A stretch of DNA of 64,000 nt from Ginglymostoma cirratum (lineage: Eukaryota), in the NCBI GenBank assembly GCA_024137785.1, contig JAHRHZ010000101.1, positions 7,577,126 through 7,641,125 of the forward strand, given 5' to 3'. Below are positions 26,245 to 55,936 of the stretch, piece after piece. The notes beneath the pieces were generated by a model. That model made no database searches. It had not been told where the DNA came from and saw nothing but the letters and a program-made list of their open reading frames with translations. Every line of letters starts with the position of its first letter. Position 1 is the stretch's first letter. Position numbers and translations under genes: made by a program.

Positions 26245-26610
26245 GGCTGTTGATTTTCTGGCCAAGCTGGCTTGTTTTCGTTCGAAAGTTTCAAAAGGTT
26301 ACATCATCAGTGAGGCCTCCGATGAAGTGATGTTGTTCTATTCCACTTGGTATTTATCCTGTATGGTCCACAATGGTGAGTAGTGTCATTTCTTGTTTTG
26401 ATCTGTATTTGGAAATGACACTACTCACCATAGCAGACCAGACAGTATAAATTCCAAGTGGAGTAGAACAACATCGCTTCATCAGAGGCCTCACTCACGA
26501 CGTTATTTAGCTTGGTGATGAAACATCTGAATGAAAATAAGCCAGCTTCACCAGCAAGTTAACAATTTCACCCAGAACCCGAGCTACAAATCTTTGCTAA
26601 ACCTTTAAAG
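26245..26610. mobile_element. Inverted cassette, third Penelope-like family
   Basis: Fold-back (tgaggcctccgatgaag / cttcatcagaggcctca); TSD ggaattaacaatga at 26231-26244 and 26611-26624. Confidence 0.6.
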
Positions 26611-27692
26611 GGAATTAACAATGAACATCACGTGTAGGATATTGAATTAGAAACCTTGCATCTAAGATCCCAAAGATACCAGGAAGTATGCCTAGAAACA
26701 TAATATGAAGTAAGAAATTAAGAGAAGAGGAAGAAAGTTGGCAGGTGAAAGCAGCAGAAGATAACTCAGGTAGAACAGAAAGTAATAAGAGCTAATGTGC
26801 ATGGGGAGAATAAAACATTGCAATCTTGGTTCTAGAGACAACATGTATCCTTCATGACCGCAATTGCTGATGTTTATGTTAAAATTTTCTGTGGAATATT
26901 GTGCATTCTATAAATTAATTCAACAAATTACTTCATAAATGATTGCTATGTCCATTTTCCAATGCAAATCAATCATTTGTTGATATTAGGTTACAACTGT
27001 AAATGTAAGTATGATAATAGATCTTCATTAAAGTCCTGTTTGGAAAAATGTGTAAATTCACAGTAGAGTGCAAACATTTACACTTTCAGTAATATCCACC
27101 AAAAAATGCATTATATGTGCATTTACACCTTGCTGGCACTGAGAACACTTGTACTGTGACAATGCCAATAGAACAATGTATATATGTTCATGCCATTAGA
27201 ACAGTGCAAGTGTATAATTGCAAGCGTCCATGAGAAGTGAACAAGAATTACATTGTGTCGGTTATTTAATATCATTATAAACAGCTACACTACCAGGGCC
27301 AGAAGTGAACTATACATAAAAAAGTGATAGTGTAAAAATGACAAAGAAACAGAATTATGAGATCAAATTATACCAATAGTACAAAGGATATAAGAAATAA
27401 AAAAAAAATCATCGTTAAAGCAGGTAAACTGCTTAGTTGATGACAAGAAATTGATTCCATAAAGATATGAGACAGTTATTATTGAATTTAAATCATAATA
27501 CTGTTGAGAAAGAGGAATTAATCAGTTAAACAAATAGTTATTGCAGTGAAGATGAGAAAAGTAAGCCTTTCAGGGTAGAAGACATTTGAATCAAGTGGGA
27601 GATGAAATACTGCTGGCATAAAAAGGAATAATAGATAAAATGAAAGTCAAGAAAGCTTACATGCTTTATTCCACTATACCAAAATTCTTCAC

Positions 27693-27768
27693 CTGGAACT
27701 CCAATAGTTGCAATGATTGGATAATAAATGGCAAACAACAAACCATTTGGTGTTTCATGCATTTCCAT
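27693..27768 (-). pseudogene. GPR139-like GPCR, first coding exon
   Basis: MEMHETPNGLLFAIYYPIIATIGVP followed by phase-1 donor G|GTGAAG. YYP...IGVP with an intron before the TM1 Asn is typical of the GPR139/142 family. Confidence 0.65.
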
Positions 27769-29027
27769 AAGAATATTAGAACGTCTTTTGTAATGCATAG
27801 GAGACTGTTACTTTTATGAATAACCCAGGCACTAGGGAGTTAATTAACAGCTTTTATGTTTAGCTCTTAAGTAATTGACTATTACGTGCAAGCAAATTAG
27901 TGCATCTACTGCTGGGATCTTATTGTTGTTGTGATGGAGTTAAATATTTTCCAACAGACCTAATTTGTTTCTAAAATCAAATCTCAGGATTATACCATGA
28001 TACATGTCACATGTCCTCCTGAAAATTAACAGTGAAAATGGGTGCTGTATAGGAGCAACTGTGGTGCTTAAACTCCTCGGGCTCACTTCAATTGTTCTTT
28101 ATAAGGTATAACACAGGACTCATATTATGGTCAGATAGGCAAATGTAATCAACTCCTCAAATTTCACCAGGACTGCATCCCTGTGATCATGGCTCAAGCG
28201 AATGTGGCAAAATATTTTTGAAACTGTACATTCACTTTTCAGTTGTCTCTGTTCACTGTGACAAGGTCCAGTTACGTGCAATTAACTTCTCTGAGTTGAG
28301 GGTTAGTTTTTTTTTTCACCAAGCTTTCCAATGTTCATTTGTGCACATCACAGATACTATTTTGGGAGAAGGTCATAACACGTGAGAAAGGTCCAGTTTG
28401 CATATATCACCTCGTTTAAGAGCCTTTTTTCATAATATATCTGGTCAGCATCTTTATTACATTCACTGTGACCAGTTTATGGTTACCAGATGTAGAAACA
28501 TGCGTACTTCAGCAGAGCTACATTTTTTGTGCACCGTTTCAAATCACTGCATCAGATAGTCATAGTAAGAATGATGTTAGCAAATGTAATCATTTGAAGA
28601 CAAAGAAATATAATATAAATGAGGATTTAAGCACAAAAATTGGTTTGCAGAGCTTGGTGAAGTGATAATTTGAAGTTGATTGTTTTTAATGAATTGAAGG
28701 GTACTGATTTGGAAATTGTTGCTAATTTTCACAGTGAACTCTGGTACAAACAACTATGTCAAAATTAGATCTGGAATTGTATTAAATAACCCTTTAGATC
28801 TATGGAGACAAAGGAGGGGTTTATGATAATGTAATAGGCCTATGTAAATATGGCATGGACTCACTAACCCAAATACACCTCCTCACCTCCACATCATCAA
28901 TTATTTTTCTTCCATCATCTTTAATTGCTGGGATTCAATAACCTAATTGCTTCATTTCTCAAACACCTGGGGTTTTGGAACTCCAATTGGCTGATCATGC
29001 CTTGTCATGGACAAGTTGATAATCTTC

Positions 29028-33148: not shown

Positions 33149-33157
33149 TCATTGGAC
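33149..33157 (-). CDS. IgM1gj: IgH TM2 exon (VQ-stop)
   Basis: Strong acceptor CCCTTTTTTTTCAG at 33158, then GTC CAA TGA, after a 139-nt intron. Gives cytoplasmic tail KVQ (cf. KVK). Confidence 0.8.
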   Translation of the reverse strand, partial: VQ

Positions 33158-33296: not shown

Positions 33297-33421
33297 CTTC
33301 ACCAGAGTGACAGCCGCGCTGTAAAAAATGGTCAGGATGAACAGGGTGGTGAAAGTAGAAGCGGTTTTCGAAATGTTGTCATCGCCTTCATAGCCTTCAA
33401 TCCAGGGGTGATCTGCAGAAT
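33297..33421 (-). CDS. IgM1gj: IgH transmembrane exon TM1
   Basis: Acceptor CATAG at 33422, donor AAG|GTGAG at 33296, 125 nt, phase 1-0. (D)SADHPWIEGYEGDDNISKTASTFTTLFILTIFYSAAVTLVK, with the TASTF..LF.L..FYS..VTL membrane-mu motif. Confidence 0.92.
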
Positions 33422-41503: not shown

Positions 41504-41895
41504 TCATTTACATGAATTAACGGTGCCCATTAGTGCAAGGGAAATATTCACAAAACTCAGTTTACCGTTGGATTTATCAACTGTTCTGTTGATAATTTTT
41601 AAGGGAATCGCTTCATGTCCCACCACGCAGGAGTACGAAACACCGCTGGCCCACTCCTCTGCTGCAACTGATAACAGGCTGTACATGAAGAAGGAGTTAT
41701 TGTCGTTCTCCGCTATCACTTCGGTGTTCTTGTAGTTCACAGGATTCATCAGTTTATTATTGCTAATCCACTTAACAAAGATCTCTCGGGGATAGAAATC
41801 TTTCACTAAGCAAGTGAGGGGAACAACTCTCTGAGCAGAGACTTCTTCTGTCGGGGGCAGGAGTATTGAAACGAACGGTACTCTCAGATCTCCAG
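41504..41895 (-). CDS. IgM1gj: Third constant exon (IgM CH4 homologue) plus secretory tailpiece
   Basis: Acceptor CTGCAG at 41896. [43 protein letters not shown]...[43 protein letters not shown]. Tail has an NIS sequon and penultimate Cys. Internal TM donor G|GTAAA at 41565. Confidence 0.95.
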
Positions 41896-42598: not shown

Positions 42599-42907
42599 CT
42601 TCCTTCTTGTGGATCGAACTTCTGAGAGGAGTTGACAGATCCTGATGATTCACTATACAGGAGAAATCATCGCCGCTCAGCCAAGCTTGTGTCGAGACGT
42701 TTAGTTTGCTGACCACGCTGTCGGGATCCTCTCTGGTTTGAACGACAACATTTGATTTCAGAGACCTTTCCCCCCGTGTCCAGGAAATGTTGACATCATG
42801 AGGGACGTTGAAGGCGATGCAGGTTAATGTCACTGTAGCCTCTAGCAAAGCCTGTTCTATTGGCGGTGGGAGGAGATTAACCCTGATGAGACTGCACGTG
42901 GGAACAT
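42599..42907 (-). CDS. IgM1gj: Second constant exon, homologous to IgM CH3
   Basis: Acceptor AACAG at 42908, donor G|GTGAG at 42598, 309 nt. [19 protein letters not shown]...[30 protein letters not shown] matches shark C-mu3. Confidence 0.93.
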
Positions 42908-44654
42908 CTGTTAAACAAAAATGATACTCAACCAAAAGCATTTTCAAAGAAATTGGAAAATCAGCATTCAGATTTCACTCCCTCAAGCACACTAAATTAC
43001 CTATGTGATATTTGACTGCACCTTTTCGGAAAAAAATACCATTGTTCTCTGAAGGATAATTATTTAGAAAAGTTGTTGTAGCTTCTTCCTATCTGTTACC
43101 TCTAGAACTCAATTTAAGCTGAACGTATCCTCTAAGTCTCTTCTAATCCCAACATCTCTCTATCGGAGCGCCCTTGGATGACTAATAAATACATACACTG
43201 AGGTCCCTCCAACTTGAAACTATTAGAGTCATAGAGTTATAGAGTCTTAGAATCATCGAGTAATACAGCATGGAAACAAGCCCTTAGGGCCAAACTGGTC
43301 CATGCTGACCATGTCGCCCACTCAACGAGCTCCAAATGCCTGCATTTGGTCCACATCCCTCTACACCCTTCCCATCCGTGTGACTATGCAAATGTATTTT
43401 TTAAAATTTTATGATTGTACCTTTGTTGCTTTGTACTTATTGTCGCAATTCTTTTTGGATCCTTCACTTCTGCCTCCGCACCCCTTTCAAATTGTGTCGT
43501 CCAGAATGGCACTAAATACTGAAATCGACGTAGAGCCACTGTTTTTGTGAATATTCCAACACTACTTCATTGCTTTTGTACTGAATGTCCCTCTTTATAT
43601 TGATCGGGTCAAATTTGGCTACTAAATCTGCCCTTGCATGCTTCTGCTTCATCAATAAATTCTATACATAGAATCGATGGTCGAGATATAGAATATTGCT
43701 AATGTATACAGGTCGCCTCAAATTTTCTGTCCCCCTCACTCTTCCAACCTACCTCCCCTGAAGTGACTCTCAGATCCAACCCTGAGTTTGCAATTAAGCC
43801 AACTAACAAAGTTGGTACTGTTATTGTCTTGCAGACTGACTTCTATATTGCAAGGCTGTGCGCCAGCTCTCAAATACTTCCTCCTATCTCATCTGGGGCC
43901 GTGACCCCAAAACACTATCATGTCCACAATGGTTACTGTGCTCATTTCATACTCGCCACCAGCCCCCTGCTTCCGTGCTCATAATCTCCCAACACCGTAC
44001 AGCTCTCGTCCACCTAATACAGCCATATATTTGTAATTTGAGATTTAAGTTATTGTTTCTGGAGTTCTCCTCCAGAAGAATACTCTGTCTACATTCAACA
44101 ACGTTAATGTATTTAAATTTCTTCATTATACCACTGTTTTATATTTCATACACAAATTAAGACGAGTCTAGTCTTGGCTAACTTTCGCTGCTCGAATTGA
44201 ACTTGTAGCACAAATAGAAACCATATCCCTGCTTGAAATTGAATGTTGCTCAACTATTAAATTTCACACGTCTAATTCATGGCCGAAAGGATTGGCTGGT
44301 TTGAAACAAAACTGCATTTGATTTCTCTTCAGTTACTCTCCGAAATAACAACGAAATAGTAACCTTACTTTGGGAGTTAATGAAATTTCAAACAGCGAGA
44401 ATGTCAATCCTGAAAGTCAATGGGTTTAGAACTTTCCCTCTTTCTCATTCAGATTTATTTGTCCTCCCACTATAGAACTTCGAAGATAGCAAGAAATTAA
44501 CTACGTACTCAATAATTTTACTCTAATATAACCCAGCTCTCCAGAATCTTAACGTAATTTATGTACTTAACATAATTAAATTGCACGTTATCCGACCATC
44601 CTCTCTCCCATTCTCGTACAGCCTTTCACGTCCATTGTATTCTGAGAAACCAAC

Positions 44655-44954
44655 CTGGCATTTCCACTCGCCAGACAGACCTGCTGTATCGAACTTCACA
44701 GTATATCTTGCAGCATCTCATTTCTGAATCAGTGAAGGTTAACTGGCTGCTCAAAGCGTAGTTTCCCTCCTTGTTTCTCACTGATGGATAAGTCATAAAT
44801 CCAGTGATTATCGGCTCCCTGTCTTTCTTCCACGTCACTCTGATGACGTCAGGGGAATAATCCGTCGCCAAACAGACGTAGGTCACGGAACTGCCGGTGT
44901 TATGTTGTTGGTTGAATGAGATTAGGCCGTAGAGTGTGGGAGGAAACGGTTTCT
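44655..44954 (-). CDS. IgM1gj: IgM-type CH1 exon
   Basis: Acceptor CCCTAG at 44955, donor G|GTTGGT at 44654, 300 nt, phase 1-1. [43 protein letters not shown]...[17 protein letters not shown], shark C-mu1 pattern. Confidence 0.93.
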
Positions 44955-46198
44955 CTAGGGATGAATGCCCGTTTGTACAAGTTAGACACGGAAATTATCA
45001 TTTATCAAGCAACCACAAAAATCAAAATTTAACCGAAGGTATAAACTTATTCTAATAATTTTCAATTACAACATATGCCTGCATGAGTACGTCCGTTTGT
45101 TCCATAATGTAGTGGTCATCCCCTGTCGGTTGCTTCGGCATAAACCCATTTTCCTCTCACTTTTACCATATTGCTGATGACTACGAGCCTTTTCAGCCTA
45201 TCACAACGAAATATATTCTATTGGATTAAAATATAAAATCGGCTGAGATACCCATTTCATTCTACCATTTCCTGCTTCTCTGTTAGAAGTTCTCTGTAGA
45301 AAATTAAGTGTCATAATTGTTAGCATGGTACTTGCTGTCGTTTTCTGCATTCCAATTGAGTGCTGGAATTTTATTCTAAACCTGGCAAATTAAAAACAAA
45401 AGTGAATTGGCTTAAAGACTACTTCGTAATATATTTTGATAAAATGGGCGCAAAACTCTAAATGTGGACACCAAATGATATAATTAAATAAGTTTCGCAT
45501 CAAAACAGGCAGAGGCAGTTTTGGAAGACTTTGACAAGGAGCCTTAGTGAGTTAATACAATGCATCTTATAGATGATAACCAGTGGCACCATGATACGTT
45601 GGCGATACGTTGAATATGGAAAAGTGGTAGATGCCCTGCATTTCAAACGGCATGATTTGTTTTGGGTGTCTGGAAGCTTCTTGAACATATTTGCACCTAC
45701 AGCAATCAAGAAAAGTTGGGATGATGTCATCAGATTCTAGAACAGTGCTTTTTCGTGGTGTCCAGCGTTTAATGTGCATGGAGGAGTATTACTCACTGTA
45801 AGTTAACTAGTCTACTCTTGGTGACTACTATATATCTAGATGGTTCAGGTGAGGGTTTTTTTTGGTAATAGTAAAAGTGAGAATATTGACAGTGGTTGAG
45901 TTACATATTGAATGTAAGAGAGGAATCGTTAGAATACATCAGTTGGAAATCGTCATTTCCTTCCACTTCTGTGACTCGAATATTATATCCAAATCATGCA
46001 CGTGCATGCTGTCACTTTCATGTTGCATAGGACTGCTTCTGTATCCGTAGAATTGTGAATATTGACGAAAATGGCACATCAATTGTCAAACCCCAATTCT
46101 GAACTTCGAAAGGAGAAGCATCTTTGGTGAAGCAAATGTTGCAATTGACTGTAAATCTGTACGCTGAGGAACTTTGGGAGAGTCCTGTTGTAGTGAGA

Positions 46199-47526
46199 GA
46201 TAAAGGGTACTGCAGATGCTGTAGAATCCGAGATAACAAGCATGGGGCTGGATGAACACAGCAGGTCAAGCAGCATCATAGGAGCAGGAAAACTTGACGT
46301 TTCGGGCCTAAACCCTTCATCAGAAATGGGGGAGGGGAAGAGGGTTCTGAAATAAATAGGGAGAGAGGGGGAGGCGGATAGAGGATGGATAGAGGAGAGG
46401 ATAGGTGGAGAGGAGGCAGACAAGTCGAAGAGGCGGGAATGGAGCCAGTAAAGGTGAGTGTAGGTAGGGGGGTAGGGAGGAGATAGGTCAGTCCAGGGAG
46501 GACGGACAGGTCAAGGGGGCGGGATGATGTTAGTNNNNNNNNNNNNNNNNNNNNNNNNNNNNNNNNNNNNNNNNNNNNNNNNNNNNNNNNNNNNNNNNNN
46601 NNNNNNNNNNNNNNNNNNNNNNNNNNNNNNNNNNGGGGGGGGTAGGGAGGAGATAGGTCAGTCCAGGGAGGACGGACAGGTCAAGGGGGCGGGATGATGT
46701 TAGTAGATAGGAGATGGGGGTGTGGCTTGAGGTGAGAGGAATCTCTCCTCCCCCAACCGCAAAATCCCGCACATCTCAAATGTCCTCATTCTTCAAGGAC
46801 CGCAACTTCCCCCCCACAGTGGTCGAGAACGCCCTCGACCGTGTCTCCCGCATTTCCCGGAACACATCCCTCACGCCCCGTCCCCGCAACAATAATCAAA
46901 AAAGAATCCCCCTCGTCCTCACATACCACCCCACCAACCTCCGGATCCAACGCATCATCCTCCGACACTTCCGCCATCTNNNNNNNNNNNNNNNNNNNNN
47001 NNNNNNNNNNNNNNNNNNNNNNNNNNNNNNNNNNNNNNNNNNNNNNNNNNNNNNNNNNNNNNNNNNNNNNNNNNNNNNNNNNNNNNNNNNNNNNNNNNNN
47101 NNNNNNNNNNNNNNNNNNNNNNNNNNNNNNNNNNNNNNNNNNNNNNNNNNNNNNNNNNNNNNNNNNNNNNNNNNNNNNNNNNNNNNNNNNNNNNNNNNNN
47201 NNNNNNNNNNNNNNNNNNNNNNNNNNNNNNNNNNNNNNNNNNNNNNNNNNNNNNNNNNNNNNNNNNNNNNNNNNNNNNNNNNNNNNNNNNNNNNNNNNNN
47301 NNNNNNNNNNNNNNNNNNNNNNNNNNNNNNNNNNNNNNNNNNNNNNNNNNNNNNNNNNNNNNNNNNNNNNNNNNNNNNNTCCGCCTCCCCCTCTCTCCCT
47401 ATTTATTTCAGAACCCTCTTCCCCTCCCCCATTTCTGATGAAGGGTTTAGGCCCGAAACGTCAAGTTTTCCTGCTCCTATGATGCTGCTTGACCTGCTGT
47501 GTTCATCCAGCCCCATGCTTGCTATC
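46199..47526. mobile_element. Penelope-like element with inverted terminal repeats (two N gaps inside)
   Basis: Terminal repeat in both orientations, internal PLE ORF piece (RIPLVLTYHPTNLRIQRIILRHF), 16-bp TSD tcctgttgtagtgaga at 46183-46198 and 47527-47542. Confidence 0.85.
47435..47462 (+). ncRNA. Minimal hammerhead ribozyme motif in a Penelope-like terminal repeat
   Basis: CUGAUGA-A-GGG-uuuagg-CCC-GAAA-CG-UC, with short helix I (auuu/aagu). Confidence 0.65.
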
Positions 47527-48049
47527 TCCTGTTGTAGTGAGATTGTCCTTATCCCTGAACCGGGAGGCTAAGTTCAATTCATAACTGTTTCAGTGATGCG
47601 TATTAAATTCTTTGAACAGGGTGATGAGAAAAGGTCTACCCTAAGGAAGCCTTCTAATAATGTTCGACAAGTGAAATAAAGTTTTCCAACAACTGCAACC
47701 ATCTTCCTTTGTGCTACGACTGACTTCAAAAAGCAGAAAGATTTCACCTGAAACTATTGACATCAGTAATACAAGGACTGCTTGACTGTGTTCTCTGTTC
47801 GAGGGTGCATTGCTTTCATGATCAGTTATTTTCGCGTCAGTTCTGTAGTTTAGCGCTTTTGTTCATGTTTGCAACAAGACTTTAATGAGGCCGGGAGGCG
47901 AATGAATCTGGTGGAATTCATGCTGAATGTCAGTGAGCAAGCTCTTCCTTTGCGGCGAACACGTGGTAGCACTGTCGCTCACGCATCTGGAAATTTGTTG
48001 ATAATCGAGACTGGACTGAGCGGGCAGCAATTGTCTGATAATTGTCTGG

Positions 48050-48375
48050 ACCGTCACCGTGGCTCAGTGGTTAGCCCTGCTACCTCACGGCAACAGGGAC
48101 CCAGGCTTAATTCCAGCCTTAGGGAAGCGTCTGTGTGGAGACTCCTGTGCCTTAGTGGGTTTCCTCCGAGAGACCTGGTTTCATCCCACAGTGCAAAGAT
48201 GTGCAAGTTAAGAGGAATGGAAATGCTAAGTTGCCCGTTGTGTCCAGGGACATATGGGTTAGCGATGGGAAATGCAGGCTTACGAGGATAGGGCAGGGGA
48301 TTGAGTCTGGGTGGGATAATCTTCTAAGAGTTGGTGTCGAATCGTTGAGCTGTTTCCACACTGTCGGGATGCTGT
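48050..48375 (+). mobile_element. HE1-type V-SINE
   Basis: Same family. Confidence 0.78.
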
Positions 48376-49719
48376 GACGAAGGAAATACTCTCTTTTTTC
48401 ATATTGTTTTTCTGGTATACTGTGCTGTAGATGCCAGTGTTATAACTGTAGCGCAAAAAAAATGCTCGTGACGCAATTATTTCTGAAGCACAACTTTTCA
48501 ACGGTGTTGATATAGTTCAAAATATAGAAACTTGATTGTTGTTGCTGGACAGTTCCTAGAGAGAATCTAACTGGCTGAGGACTGACTCTGCGATGCTGGA
48601 GACCCCATATGGAGAACAAAATAGATCGTCAGCACTTTGGTTCTGGTTTCTGGCTGTTGCAAATATTTTACCCTTGACAGTTTGTGTTCTCCCAACAGAG
48701 AATAAAGATATTCGTTTTTTTCAAACCTCACAACGTTTCTGACAGGAGATTAATTGAGCTTTCAGTACAAAAATTCCATCCCAGATTTAAATTTCATCCT
48801 ACTTGTAATGATGCTGCTTGTAACATTTCTTGCGAAGAGACATTCCAGGCCCTAACAATCTGTAATGTAGGAAAACAGATTCTTACTCTCCCCCGCCGTT
48901 GCTTCTCTGTTCGTATTGCCTCATTATTCTCTACATATTAACTCAATGTTGTAGAGAAACAAAATGTTCAGAAATGTTGAGTGAAAATAAAAGACATTCT
49001 GTTTGCAAAACAGCACTCAGTGAGCCTGAAATAATCTCCGTTATACTCGACTATAGTTAATTGTTGTAACAATCGGTTGACAGCCCATTACAATGTGAGC
49101 TAAATCATTCAGTGCACAGATTGATAATTTACCATAATTTAGTAGCTGGAATCCGAACACTTGATGATTTTGCACTAACGATAAACTATTTCATTTATTT
49201 TCTGTACTTAATGCACAGTGATGAACTTGCAGTTCTTGCCCTATTCTGACATTATTAAAGATATCTCACAAAACACGGTTTCCCAACCCAAATCAATGGG
49301 TTGTGCGAACTGAACTTAAATTACCATTTTCTTCTGGGAGAGGGCTGTTATTTTCATCATCTGTTTCATTTTCTAGCACGCCTACCACTCACCAGTGAAA
49401 ATGTTATCATTAACTCTTGTTCTTATACTGTTCTCTGAATTGAATATTAAATATATTGCTTCCATAAAATCCTTATTCTGACGTTATTTAGATATTTTAA
49501 ATCTAATAGTGTCAATTGCTCACATTCAAGAAGGAGCATCACTAATTAATGTGTTTATTGTTGATGTGCTCTGCCTTCCCTGTTGTTTTGATTCGATAAT
49601 ACAGCCATAGCTGGTGAAAGTTCCATTGCTAGCATTAAATCTAAAATATCTTAGATGAAAGGAGGTCTATATAGAAATTTGAATTGCTTCAGATGCAAAG
49701 AGTTGTGGTAAATATCTTA

Positions 49720-51334
49720 GATAACAAGGTGTGGGGCTGGGTGAACACAGCAGGCCAAGCAGTATCATAGGAGCAGGAAAGCTTGACGTTTCGGGCCTAG
49801 ACCCTTCATCAGAAATGGGGGAGGGAAGAGGATTCTGAAATAAATAGGGAGAGAGGGGGAGGCGGATAGAAGATGGATAGAGGAGAGGATAGGTGGAGAG
49901 GAGGCAGACAAGTCGAAGAGGCAGGGATGGAGCCAGTAAAGGTGAGTGTAGGTGAGGGGGTTGGGAGGAGATAGGTCAGGCCAGGGAGGACGGACAGGTC
50001 AAGGGGGCAGGTTGAGGTTAGTAGATAGGAGATGGAGGTGGGGCTTGAGGTGGGAGGAGATAGGTGAGAGGAAGAACAGGTTAAGGAGGTTGGGACGAGC
50101 TGGGCTGGGTTTGGGATGCGGTTGGGGGAGGGGAGATTTTGAAGCTTGTGAAATCCACATTGATACCATTGGGCTGCAGGGTTCCCAGGCTGAATATGAT
50201 TTGCTGCTCCTGCAGCCTTCGGGTGGCATCACTGTGGCATTGCAGGAGGCCCAGGATGGACATGTCGTCTGAGGAATGGGAGGGGGAGTTGAAATGGTTC
50301 ACGACTGGGAGGTGCAGTTGTTTGTTGCGAACTGAGCGCAGGTGTTCTGCAAAGCGGTCCCCAAGCTTCCGCTTGGTTTCCCGATGTAGAGGAAGCCACA
50401 ACGGGTACAGCGGATGCAGTATACCACATTGGCAGATGTGCAGGTGAACATCTGCCTGATGTGGAAAGTCTTCTTGGGGCCTGGGATTGAGGTGAGGGAG
50501 GAGGTGTGTGGGCAGGTGTAGCACTTCCTGCGGTTGCAGGGAAAAGTGCTGGGTGTGGTGGGGCTGGAGGGGAGTGTGGAGCGGACAAGGGAGTTGCGGA
50601 GGGAGTGGTCCCTCGGGAAAGCAAATAAGGGTGGGGAGGGAAAAATGTCTTTGGTGGTGGGGTCAGATTGCAGATGGCGGAAGTGTCGGAGGATGATGCG
50701 TTGGATCCGGAGGTTGGTGGGGTGGTACGTGAGGATGAGGGGGATTCATTTTTCGTTATTATTGCGGGGACGGGGTGTAAGGGATGTGTTACGGGAAATG
50801 CGGGAGACACGGTCGAGGGCGTTCTCGACCACTGTGCAGGGAAAGTTGCGGTCCTTGAAGAATGAGGACATCTGAGATGTACGGGAGTGGAATGTCTCAT
50901 CCTGGGAGCACATGCAGCAGAGGCGAAGGAATTGGCAATAGGGGATGGCATTTTTGCAGGAAGGTGGGTAGGAGGAGGCGTATTCCAGGTAGCTGTGGGA
51001 GCCAGTGGGCTTGAAATGGACATCGGTTTCTGGGTGGTTACCCGAAATAGAGTCAGAGAGGTCCAGGAAGGAGAGAGAAGTGTTGGAGATGGTCCAGGTG
51101 AACTTCAGGTTGGGATGGAAGGTGTTGGTGAAGTGGATGAACTGTTCGAGCTCCTCGTGGGAGCACGAGGCGGCGCCGATACCGTCATCAATGTAACGGA
51201 GGAAGAGGTGGGGTTTAGGGCCAGTGTTGGTACGGAAGAGGGATTGTTCCACGTAACATACAAAGAGGCAGGCATAGCTTGGGCCCATGCGGGTACCCAT
51301 GGCCACCCCCTTTGTCTGTAGGAAGTGGGATATC
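49720..51334 (-). mobile_element. 5'-truncated Penelope-like element (RT C-terminus, GIY-YIG endonuclease, terminal repeat)
   Basis: QTKGVAMGTRMGPSYACLF, FLRYIDD, FLDL RT motifs; ETKRKLGDRFAEHLRSV..PVVNHFN endonuclease; frameshifts; 16-bp TSD tgtggtaaatatctta at 49704-49719 and 51335-51350. Confidence 0.9.
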
Positions 51335-54256
51335 TGTGGTAAATATCTTATTCGTTGGCTTTCTGAATATTTCAAGCACAATTGAAATACTTGAAGATGA
51401 TAAAAAAATTAATAATGATCATATTCCATAATTACCAGTAGCGCATAAGATAATTAGATCCTAAGGAGGAGGAACAGGAGTAGGCCGTTCGGTCCCTCTA
51501 GTTTGCTCCACTATTCAGTAGAGCTCATTGATCTGGCGTTCCTCACATCCACTTTCCTGCCTTTTCCCCATCGCCTTCGATGCCCGTAGTGTTCAAGAAT
51601 CTATTTCAGCCTTAAAGGTATGTAATGATTCTGCCCCCACTGCTGTCTGTGACAATGTGTCCCAAAGACACATAACCCTTACTGAGAGAAGAAATTTATC
51701 CTTTACCTAGTCTTAAATTCGTGCCTCCTTACTCTGAGACTTTCTCGACTCTCTCATGCATAGCATCGTCCTCTCAGCATTTACCCTGTCGGGCTCTTTA
51801 AGGATCCTGTATGTTTCAATGAGATCACCTCTATTTTTCTACACTCCAGTGAGTGGAGTGTTAACCTGATTAGCCTTTGCTCATAAGATAATCGGTCCAT
51901 ACCGGGTTGTTGTTCATCTAATAAATTTGAACTACATGCAGCACAGAGGTGGAACACAGATGTTGTCTTCAGTTTCTAAACTAATACCAATTCTGCCTCT
52001 TTTCAATTAAATTTATTTATTTGCGTTTATAAACTACAATTGTCAACCATTACTAATGTCCATACTGCACATTCCTATAAATAAACCTATATAGACGATT
52101 CATTCTTCATCGGTTATAAGCACCTCTCAGAAAAATTGAGATTAAATTTAATGTTTGACTAAAAACACTAATGGAACTGCATAAATGGGCATACATACGG
52201 ATATTGTAATAATCAGAAACACGTCTTGTTAAACTAAAATTTATAGTTTTAGCAACTAAAGTGAAAATGTGTATTTATCTGTTTCATTCAAGGGGTAGTG
52301 GGAATCGGTTGGGGGTCAACTACGTGCAATTGAGCATGCGGCAGAATTATTATTTGTGCTGAAATAGCTTCAGTCCTAATCAAAACATTGATCCAGCCCT
52401 TAAATATTTTCAACCTCAACATTGGGGTGCAGCACGCAACAAAAGAGTGAGATCTGACTGCATATTATAAACAATTAACTGAAGAGTAACCTTGTTCAAT
52501 ACCGAAATCTGTTAAATATTTTCTGAATTTATTTGGATATAATCATTATTTTGTCCAATTTTCACATCTACTAGTTATAAGATGTGCGACGGCTACATTA
52601 TTTTCTGATTCAGCATTCGTCTTTGTTTAACATGATGTGGACGTGCCAGTGTTGGGCTGGGATGGACAAGGTCTGGAGTCAAACGACACAAGGTTATAAT
52701 TAAACAAGCTTATTTGAAATTACAAGCTTTCAGAGCGCTGTTCATTCGTCAGATAAATTTAGTCGCTTCACGCGCTGACCGTGCAGCGGTTCGAAAGCCT
52801 GTGATTTCGAGTAAACCCGTTGGACTATAAGCTGGTGTCGTGTGATTTCTGACTTTTCCTACATGAAATTGCTACTAAGACGAAATGTGGAACTTGTTTT
52901 TTAAAAAAAGCCTTAATTTCATGTTACAAAGATGACCATTTTCGATCAGGGATTATGATTTAAGCAATTTCGAAGCAATTAATGTTTGCGTTTAATAAAA
53001 AAAAAAATGTGCTACCATTGAAGTTTATCGCATTTAAGCAAACGTGCAACAAAGGTGAAACGCCGAGCAGCTTCAGAAATGTAATTAATTCAGACCAAAA
53101 CAACGTTGTCTTCAGCAGAAGTACTTCAAATCACAATATTGCGCTTTTGAGAAGTGTCTCATGGACCATTATCTCAATGTTTCAAACACTCCCTTTGGAT
53201 CATATGGAATATCGTAAGGAATTCTCAGTACAAATTCTGTATCCACTGCTCGTCACCAAACTAATTAAAGATAAAATGACACAAAAATATGGACTAATAA
53301 CAACAGCATTGTGGGCAGTCAGACCATGAAAAATAAATTAAAACTGAAGCTTTAGCACATTTTGTTAATGATACATTATTTGTTGTTTCACCACATTATA
53401 ATAGCTGTTCTGAAGACTATATAGTTGTATCAATTTATATCTGAGAAAAGATGAAAATTTATTCTTAAATAAGAATAATTATTAATGGTCATCTTTGTAA
53501 CATAAAGTTACGTTTACAAAGAATTTCAAGTTCAGTGGTAATAACGTGTTAAATAAAGACATGGGTTAAGATGCTTATTCAGAAAATAATGCCTTACAGT
53601 CGACACGCGTCTTAAAATTAGTAAGTGTGAAAATTGGAGAAAACAAGGACTATATTCAAACAAATTTGTAAAACATTAAACAGACTTAGTTAAATCAAAA
53701 TTTTTTCTTAGTTAAATCAAAAGTTGTTTCCTTAAATTTAGGCATGTCTGTACATTTGGCAAATAAACGAACACTTAAAGGTCACAAGTAAATTACACTA
53801 TTATTAGTTCATCATATTTTACCCAGTCTTATTCTTCCCTATAATCTCCCAAGACTAAAATGTATGCAAATATCAAGCTGTAGAAAACTTTATTTATTTA
53901 ATATCATCAAACAGTAATTGGATCTTTCAGCAACATCTTTTGCGGAGAAGCAATTGACTAAGAAAGCAAAAAGAAGACACTGTTCATAGTGGACAAAAAC
54001 AGAAATAAAACTGTTGGAGAAACACGAACGGTTTGAAAACGTCCATCAAGAGAGACACAGAGCTGTTGTTTTGAATCCGATGCAAGTTTTCCTCAGAAAC
54101 AGGGAAGCCTATAATACTTCTGCAGAATTAAATCAGACTTTGCAAACATTTTCAAGACACAATACACAAAATCAAAACTCCTGTGAATGAATGAATTGAT
54201 AAAATGGAGAGAAAATGTTCATACGTTTCTTAAATAAATAAATGCATGATCCTTAC

Positions 54257-54619
54257 CTTCAGTTACCGTTACTCTGGTCCCTTGTCCCCAGTAGTCCAAC
54301 GCCCACCCAGTCGATCCTCTTGCACAGTAGTAGATGGCACTGTCCTCGGTTTTCAGGTTCACTATGTCCAATGCAATCATATTGTTTGAAATGTCCTTCG
54401 ATGCAGTAAATCGGTTGCCAATCCCTGGGTTGTAGTGAGTGTCTGATACAATGTAATAATAAATTAGCCACTCCAGCCCCTGTCCTTGAATCTGCCGCAC
54501 CCAATTCATGCCATGGTACTCCAGGTCGAAACCGCTGATTTTACAAGTCAGTTTCAGGGAGCCTCCGGGAATGCTAGTCTCTGCCTCTGGCTGTGTCAAC
54601 ATAATATCCGAACGGATAC
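54257..54619 (-). CDS. IgM1gj: Pre-joined VH-D-JH exon of an IgM1gj-like heavy chain
   Basis: Acceptor TACAG at 54620, donor G|GTAAGG at 54256, 363 nt open. [10 protein letters not shown]...LTCKISGF...[13 protein letters not shown]...[25 protein letters not shown]. No heptamer/nonamer between V and J. Confidence 0.95.
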
Positions 54620-54966
54620 CTGTAATAATATCATAACAATCCGGAGGATTAATCATTGTGAAGTAAATCCCGCCTGCAACATTGCAGAAAGTGATTGTCA
54701 ATGAGACAACCCAAGCGCGAGACTCGGACATTAAAAATACATCGCAAACCCTAAGTACTAATCCTTACTGAATTAATTATTACTGAATCTGTATCATTCC
54801 AACGATAGACTAACAGAAACAGTGAGAGTTTAGGACAAAAGCAAATGAAATTTAATAAAAACAGACTTTAATACAGCTGAAATGATTACATCCTGTATAA
54901 CACTCTAAAGATAGACTAACGTTAATACCATATCATTGGGGCATTTTGGCAATAATAAGTTCTTAC

Positions 54967-55012
54967 AAGATATGGAAGTCAGCAACAAACTGAGGGAAAT
55001 CGCTGACTGCAT
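54967..55012 (-). CDS. IgM1gj: IgH leader exon (MQSAISLSLLLTSIS + first base of Cys)
   Basis: ATG at 55012, 46 nt, phase-1 donor T|GTAAGA at 54966. Hydrophobic shark-VH-type signal peptide completed by CIRS in the next exon. An in-frame upstream ATG lies at 55024 (MIRR). Confidence 0.9.
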
Positions 55013-55107
55013 TCTTCTGATCATATTGTTTCATATAAGTTGCTTTGACTAGAACTCACTGAGCAAACCAGCTCCCAGGTTCTGGTATGACGGTCCCAGT
55101 GGTCGGC

Positions 55108-55118
55108 TCTTAAATATC
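55108..55118 (-). promoter_or_regulatory. TATA-like element of the VH promoter
   Basis: GATATTTAAGA on the minus strand about 100 nt upstream of the leader ATG. Confidence 0.5.
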
Positions 55119-55936
55119 CTGCAGAAGTGGGCAGGTTTACAGACACTTTTTTTTTCCCGGTGTTGATCGAGTGACTGAATCCTGTCGCAAATTCCACATT
55201 CGAAATAGAATGGCCTCCTATATTTAAAATAGGTTATTATTAAAGTTGGAGATTTCAGACGTATCAGGATATTTGTCAGGTTGAATATTTTAAATTGAAT
55301 TTCCTTCTTCGGTTCAATATTGAAGTTATAGTTAGTATCTGCTAATAACGCAAGCAAATAATTTTGGAGAAATCTAATTAGCAATTCAATTTCAAATTAA
55401 GTTTCTATGCTGGTACGTAATCATTTAAACCTACCTGTTTAAAGTAAATTGCAAGGGAATAAAGAGACTGACATCATATTTTACAATAATTACACGTGAC
55501 TATCACATTGCAGTTCCTCATATTACTTTCTGATCCAGTTTGATTATGAAGTGAAAATGGTATATCGTGAAACAATACATGTGATTAAAAACAAGCATAT
55601 AAAACTAACTTTCTGTTTGTTGACCAGTAAATTATTCTTTGTCATTCAATCGCACGTTTGTTTATTTGCATTCACCAGGACTTTTCCAAAAGTATTTGGC
55701 AACAATCCAACCAATTACAAGCAGCGAGTCTTATAATGATATCTAACAAAAGCATCTCGTGACCTGATCCTATAAAACAAAAGTCGGCTTCGTCCTTATT
55801 GACAGCGTGGCTGAAGTCCAATTACCATTCATAAATAATTCTCCCATGAAAGTAGGTATAAACAATGTCCAATCGTCTACATATTGAGTGCAACATAACA
55901 TCGGGATCGTTAAACATTCAGACAGGCAGAGGGCAA

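Follow-up and report, generated by a model that had tools for sequence, protein, structure and literature searches.

The window, which is the whole 64,000-nucleotide stretch of nurse shark (Ginglymostoma cirratum) DNA analyzed here, carries on its minus strand an IgM-type heavy chain gene whose V, D, and J elements lie in a single exon (Table 1). Every intron of this gene (the window gene) has GT..AG ends, four introns belong to the secreted form, and the three constant domains are of the Cmu1, Cmu3, and Cmu4 types. Cmu2 is missing. A tblastn search with a Cmu2 query found the exon in four other clusters but not in the window gene, and blastn with three Cmu2 exons against the C1-C3 intron gave only a 15-base chance match. 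A Cmu2 remnant in that intron was rejected since neither search found one. None of the twelve other open reading frames in the window has a Pfam match at the curated cut-off. One short frame on the minus strand at 27400-27800, also with no Pfam match, presumably corresponds to the beginning of a G-protein-coupled receptor of class A; a stretch of 100 bases recurs as near-copies at the two ends of 26300-26550. Searches of the ESM Atlas and PDB returned generic antibody matches only.

Table 1. Features of the joined IgM gene and the evidence for each (positions in the window)
Feature	Position	Strand	Evidence or remark
Leader exon (MIRRMQSAISLSLLLTSIS)	54967..55024	-	Matches AAK07642.1 N-terminus; spliced to V in transcripts of runs X2, X7, and X16
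Leader intron, 347 bp, GT..AG	54620..54966	-	Absent from spliced contigs and reads
Fused in-frame V-D-J exon, no RSS	54257..54619	-	Pfam V-set E 2e-17; mature part 100% identical to AAK07642.1
Fixed 11-residue CDR3	54291..54323	-	No alternative letter in contig X2; in X16 only minority letters, from reads differing further
Likely D2 remnant inside junction	54302..54310	-	7 bases equal the 3′ end of D2 from split cluster L004
J-C intron, 9302 bp, repeat debris and two N runs	44955..54256	-	J-to-C1 splice in X2 and 19 X16 reads
C1 exon (Cmu1 type)	44655..44954	-	Pfam C1-set; 100% to AAK07642.1
C1-C3 intron, 1747 bp, no detectable Cmu2 exon or remnant	42908..44654	-	tblastn, blastn
Second C exon (Cmu3 type)	42599..42907	-	Pfam C1-set; identical to AAK07642.1; best match Cmu3
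Third C exon (Cmu4 type): secretory tailpiece, penultimate Cys, stop	41504..41895	-	Pfam; 24 residues differ from AAK07642.1
Internal splice donor for membrane form, in Cmu4-type exon	after 41566	-	Joins TM1 in frame (model)
TM1 exon, open, AG..GT intact	33297..33421	-	71% to bamboo shark IgM TM; in-frame model
TM2 exon, Val-Gln-stop (usual tail: Val-Lys-stop)	33149..33157	-	In-frame model

Analysis of the junction confirmed that it is fused in genomic DNA, as an earlier note made from the sequence alone had claimed. The second Cys codon (54326-54324) and the J Trp codon (54290-54288) lie in a single open frame on the minus strand, and the 16-residue stretch 54326-54279 is uninterrupted in that frame. 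The J Trp is 34 bases past the second Cys, compared to 428-1240 bases in unjoined control loci (J was in range at four of five). The note's claim that no RSS is present was also borne out. Scanning 1500 bases from the second Cys with an RSS consensus gave 0 matches at the window gene, whereas five IgM-type V loci of this genome that are unjoined had 2 to 7 matches each, and this rules out a rearranging IgM minilocus with RSS-flanked V, D1, D2, and J. The scan found none in three other joined V genes of this genome. Between 44955 and 57000, the sole RSS-like match is at 49097, with four mismatches, deep within the J-C intron. Another feature pointed out in the note, the GLEW light-chain interface in FR2, is read directly in the window V exon. 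Together with the WGQG retained in J, it would fit pairing with a light chain.

The constant region and the J-C intron also show features of their own. In the C1 exon (44655-44954), the N-terminal Cys found in other shark Cmu1 domains and the C-terminal Cys are both missing, and in the alignment the exon carries a Cys-Cys pair ahead of the second canonical Cys. The N-terminal Cys of Cmu1 is the usual link to the light chain, and the position of the heavy-light disulfide may have moved in the window gene. Inside the J-C intron, at 49700-51400 on the minus strand, lies a degraded retroelement that matches reverse transcriptase weakly; it is ∼92% identical to copies within other IgM clusters.

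Both the VDJ and C1, used as protein queries, returned AAK07642.1, "immunoglobulin heavy chain IgM1gj [Ginglymostoma cirratum]," at 100% identity. Like this record, the spliced product of the window gene is 473 residues long; the two differ at 25 positions. The first 363 residues, including the entire VDJ, agree at 362 positions, the single difference being at residue 21 (Ile in the window, Val in the record); the other 24 differences fall in residues 364-473. The window gene is almost certainly nurse shark IgM1gj, with its V, D, and J fused most likely by RAG in the germ cells of an ancestor and then inherited. The fusion is therefore already known rather than new, the gene and its germ-cell explanation having been published in 2001. 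Rumfelt et al. 2001 (PMC29333) is the source cited for IgM1gj in the relevant passages of three reviews (PMC4279169, PMC5192425, and PMC6795676). As summarized in the passages of two of these (PMC4279169 and PMC5192425), IgM1gj has a fully germline-joined VDJ, lacks Cmu2, is the main IgM of neonatal nurse sharks and the dominant serum Ig in neonates, and has the germline-joined sigma-2 light chain as its preferred partner. Public runs show allelic differences at window positions 54525 (silent, in CDR1) and 54617 (Ile/Val 21), which are seemingly linked. The Val allele was found in X7 and in 5 of the 12 leader-spliced X16 reads. Word-based protein searches found no orthologue in other sharks closer than 66% in V.

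Transcripts in public data provided a view of the junction beyond the assembly. Four runs (X2, X7, X9, and X16, with X2 and X16 coming from different studies) were compared with window positions 53800-55300. Two of the four, X7 and X9, do not cover the junction; X9, though listed as DNA, was not counted because its 50-base tiles with constant adapters look like a synthetic probe pool. X2 gave one 1523-base contig in which the leader intron is spliced out and no alternative letter occurs across 54257-54616. This contig reaches into C1, of which the first 30 bases were read, and extends 1040 letters beyond J, a length consistent with three C exons (1001) followed by 39 letters of 3′ untranslated region. 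In X16 (raw poly-A RNA), 106 reads matched, 59 of them at 99% or higher; the J-to-C1 splice is present in 19 reads and the leader-to-V splice in 12, of which 7 carry Ile21, as in the window, and 5 carry Val21, as in AAK07642.1. No other letter was listed in the X16 junction at the 5% listing level. Two minority letters were seen in J, each in 3 of 26 reads, and since these reads carry at least three further differences, the letters come from other clusters. X16 thus holds both leader variants, yet no second junction above 5% apart from letters on reads that differ elsewhere. The window gene is transcribed, spliced from leader to VDJ to C1 (X2 and X16), and represented by secreted-type mRNA.

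The earlier note had suggested that part of the junction may be a remnant of a D segment. When six germline D segments taken from three split clusters were compared with the junction, it shared exactly 7 bases with the 3′ end of one D2 (split cluster L004) and 6 with another (shuffle P = 0.053). A D2 remnant is therefore likely, although this match is weak when taken alone, with P about 0.05. For four joined IgM-type V genes (window, L002, L006, and L008), the summed D2 match was 25 bases (P = 0.00075, mononucleotide shuffles). The junction would then consist of the V end, a few untemplated bases, a trimmed D2, a few more untemplated bases, and a trimmed J, and the signal DNA would have been cut out during joining. 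RAG would have joined V, D, and J once, in ancestral germ cells, and the product would have been inherited. Passages of Lee et al. 2000 (PMC2193156) argue that joined light-chain genes arose by RAG-like activity in germ cells and describe such joints as rare but stable when fixed. With no rearrangement needed, newborn sharks would get one ready-made, IgG-sized secreted antibody, which would pair with a germline-joined light chain, as the parts of the literature consulted indicate.

The germline status of the joined VDJ rests on the recurrence of the junction and on the literature. The junction does resemble an ordinary RAG product, as would be expected if a rearrangement made somatically in a B cell had entered the assembly with blood or spleen DNA. 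However, a somatic junction with untemplated bases would not recur, yet the same junction is present in AAK07642.1 and in both of the two runs that cover it, which come from other studies; a somatic join in one cell is therefore very unlikely, and the CDR3 is fixed, as the note had it. Nor does the assembly contain a split form: the window V is single-copy, its next relatives are at 63% (protein) and 73% (DNA), and no split twin was found among the 150 of 164 V candidates that were scored. Somatic capture can be given virtually no weight. Only marginally more credible, and still highly improbable, is the proposal that germ-cell RAG played no part and that the fused exon is the relic of an ancestral V that was never split, or came from reverse transcription and gene conversion. 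As this proposal might have it, the window gene sits on a long branch and is not a member of the group formed by the conventional IgM of nurse and bamboo sharks, and the assembly holds no closely related split gene against which the joint can be compared. However, the gene is nested within elasmobranch IgM, with chimaeras as the outgroup, contains a J and a D2-like core, and retains all its introns. A processed retrocopy is ruled out by the four retained introns of the secreted form with their GT..AG ends, and the note had excluded it on the same ground, from the leader intron (347 bp) and the J-C intron, both of which are kept. The fossil germ-cell join proposed in the note is thus supported by the retained introns, the identity of the VDJ with the IgM1gj record, the recurrent junction, and the lack of a split twin, and from these we infer the action of RAG.

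The last domain raises a different question, whether this locus is IgM1gj itself. Residues 366-473 of AAK07642.1 match the Cmu4 exon of L033 (G000:C115:713339-713710; on contig C115, within a four-domain cluster that is split) at 108 of 108 positions, compared to 79% identity with the exon of the window gene, whereas residues 344-354 follow the window gene. The switch point is near the start of the last domain, within sequence that the two exons have in common. Judged by these alignments, the record looks chimeric. The simplest explanation would be a chimera formed during cloning or PCR, with real recombination between clusters or another allele as the alternatives. The X2 contig is unbroken over its 1523 bases, and no 31-mers are shared with other loci; both points fit the presence of the window gene's own last exon in mRNA. 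The 24 differences in this domain might also mean that the window holds a closely similar duplicate of IgM1gj, in which case the real IgM1gj would have a conventional-like Cmu4 and would either be absent from the assembly or represent another haplotype. The assembly indeed seems incomplete for IgM (L004 has no C3, C4, or TM within the 30 kb examined), and the search for copies scored 150 of 164 V candidates and 120 of 120 C4 candidates. However, no second copy of the V was found among those scored, and the complete agreement of the record with L033, with the switch in a shared stretch, is what a template switch or clone overlap would give. A duplicate is therefore improbable, though less so than the two alternatives to a germ-cell join. 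With the locus taken as IgM1gj itself, the deposited record probably has the wrong last domain, and this matters for probes, antibodies, and arguments about Fc or polymerisation.

The membrane exons of the window gene are open and correctly flanked and lie 8 kb past the tailpiece. They are altered at conserved places: a Trp before the helix is replaced by Ser, and the cytoplasmic tail is KVQ compared to the usual KVK. The passages on IgM1gj in two reviews (PMC4279169 and PMC5192425) describe it in serum only and leave TM exons unmentioned. That the gene keeps open, predicted membrane exons may be new, and it raises the question of whether B cells make use of a RAG-independent receptor.

Other loci of the genome also hold joined or unusual V genes. 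At G000:C130:2494839-2479846 (L006, L036, and L064-L066; the C130 gene) lies another intact IgM gene that is fully germline-joined, has three C exons, and lacks Cmu2. Its leader starts with MIRRM, as that of the window gene does. Its fused in-frame VDJ has a 15-residue CDR3, ARQIYTSDWEFASGC, unlike the window junction, and FR2 reads QTLES compared to QGLEW. The secretory tail is longer by 9 residues with two more Cys, TM exons are present, and all exons are open. The two genes are 46-67% identical per domain. The D-like core of the C130 gene is read in a different frame from that of the window gene, and the two joins were therefore probably separate events. A sister pairing of the two genes was not recovered (p-AU 0.03), but the difference is only 2.3 log-likelihood units and the branches are long. 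A review, in the parts that concern the point (PMC4279169/PMC5192425), states that, apart from IgM1gj, the nurse shark lacks canonical germline-joined IgM. The literature searched holds no mention of a second such nurse shark gene, which may nevertheless be described in primary papers and supplements, as these were outside the search. A second three-domain joined gene would make Cmu2 loss and a fixed binding site a repeated or an old design. We put forward, as a tentative proposal that is rather more likely to fail than to hold in full, that the nurse shark has a second intact, expressed, undescribed, and independently joined IgM without Cmu2; that hard-wired IgG-like antibodies are a small, old shark class; that IgM1gj can be a membrane receptor; and that its true Fc differs at 24 residues. 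What may be new is the chimeric look of the record, the open membrane exons, and the C130 gene. Two further joined VDJ genes appear to be dead. L002 (G000:C115:77773) lacks the J splice donor and has only C1 and part of the TM in 30 kb, and in L008 (G000:C127:1576604) V is interrupted by a stop, with no C exon within 28 kb. Finally, L017 (G000:C130:1354275) is a split VH cluster unlike the two-D clusters, with J just 428 bases past V and a 12-spaced RSS before J.

Two trees of shark IgM proteins were built, one of 16 rows from C1, C3, and C4 and one of 15 rows from V, C1, C3, and C4. Rows without C3 or C4 and the deposited record were left out of both, and one pseudogene was left out of the second. 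In each tree, conventional IgM of nurse and bamboo sharks formed a supported clade (97/96 in the first, 96/94 in the second) that did not include the window gene. Grouping it with four conventional nurse shark IgM genes gave p 0.026 in the AU test, a comparison that is not clean because the constraint also expels the bamboo shark rows. These placements hint that the cluster is old, although its branch is long, and the trees do not date the join itself.

As a textbook example of RAG-type joining that became fixed in the germline, the flagged junction by itself changes nothing; what the genomic view supplies for shark immunologists is an exon map of IgM1gj. Compared to the conventional nurse shark IgM miniloci (V-D1-D2-J-Cmu1-4-TM; L003, L004, and L005), the window gene shares the exon order, splice phases, tailpiece, and TM exons at 50-81% identity per domain, but the miniloci are split, bear RSS, include Cmu2, and diversify their CDR3 somatically. 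The joined IgH clusters of horn shark and skates and the joined NS4, NS3, and NS5 light chains of the nurse shark, as covered in the sections consulted of PMC2193156 and PMC5192425, likewise have fused V(D)J, no remaining RSS, retained introns, and early-life expression. They are four-domain IgM or light-chain genes, however, whereas the window gene lacks Cmu2, and according to the same sections many other joined heavy chain genes are silent or broken, whereas the window gene is expressed. The closest counterpart is the IgM1gj record AAK07642.1, in which the leader, the VDJ with its CDR3, C1, and the second C domain are identical save one allelic residue, and which has the same three C domains, no Cmu2, and a secretory tail; the genomic gene differs from it at 24 residues of the last exon and in also having open TM1 and TM2.
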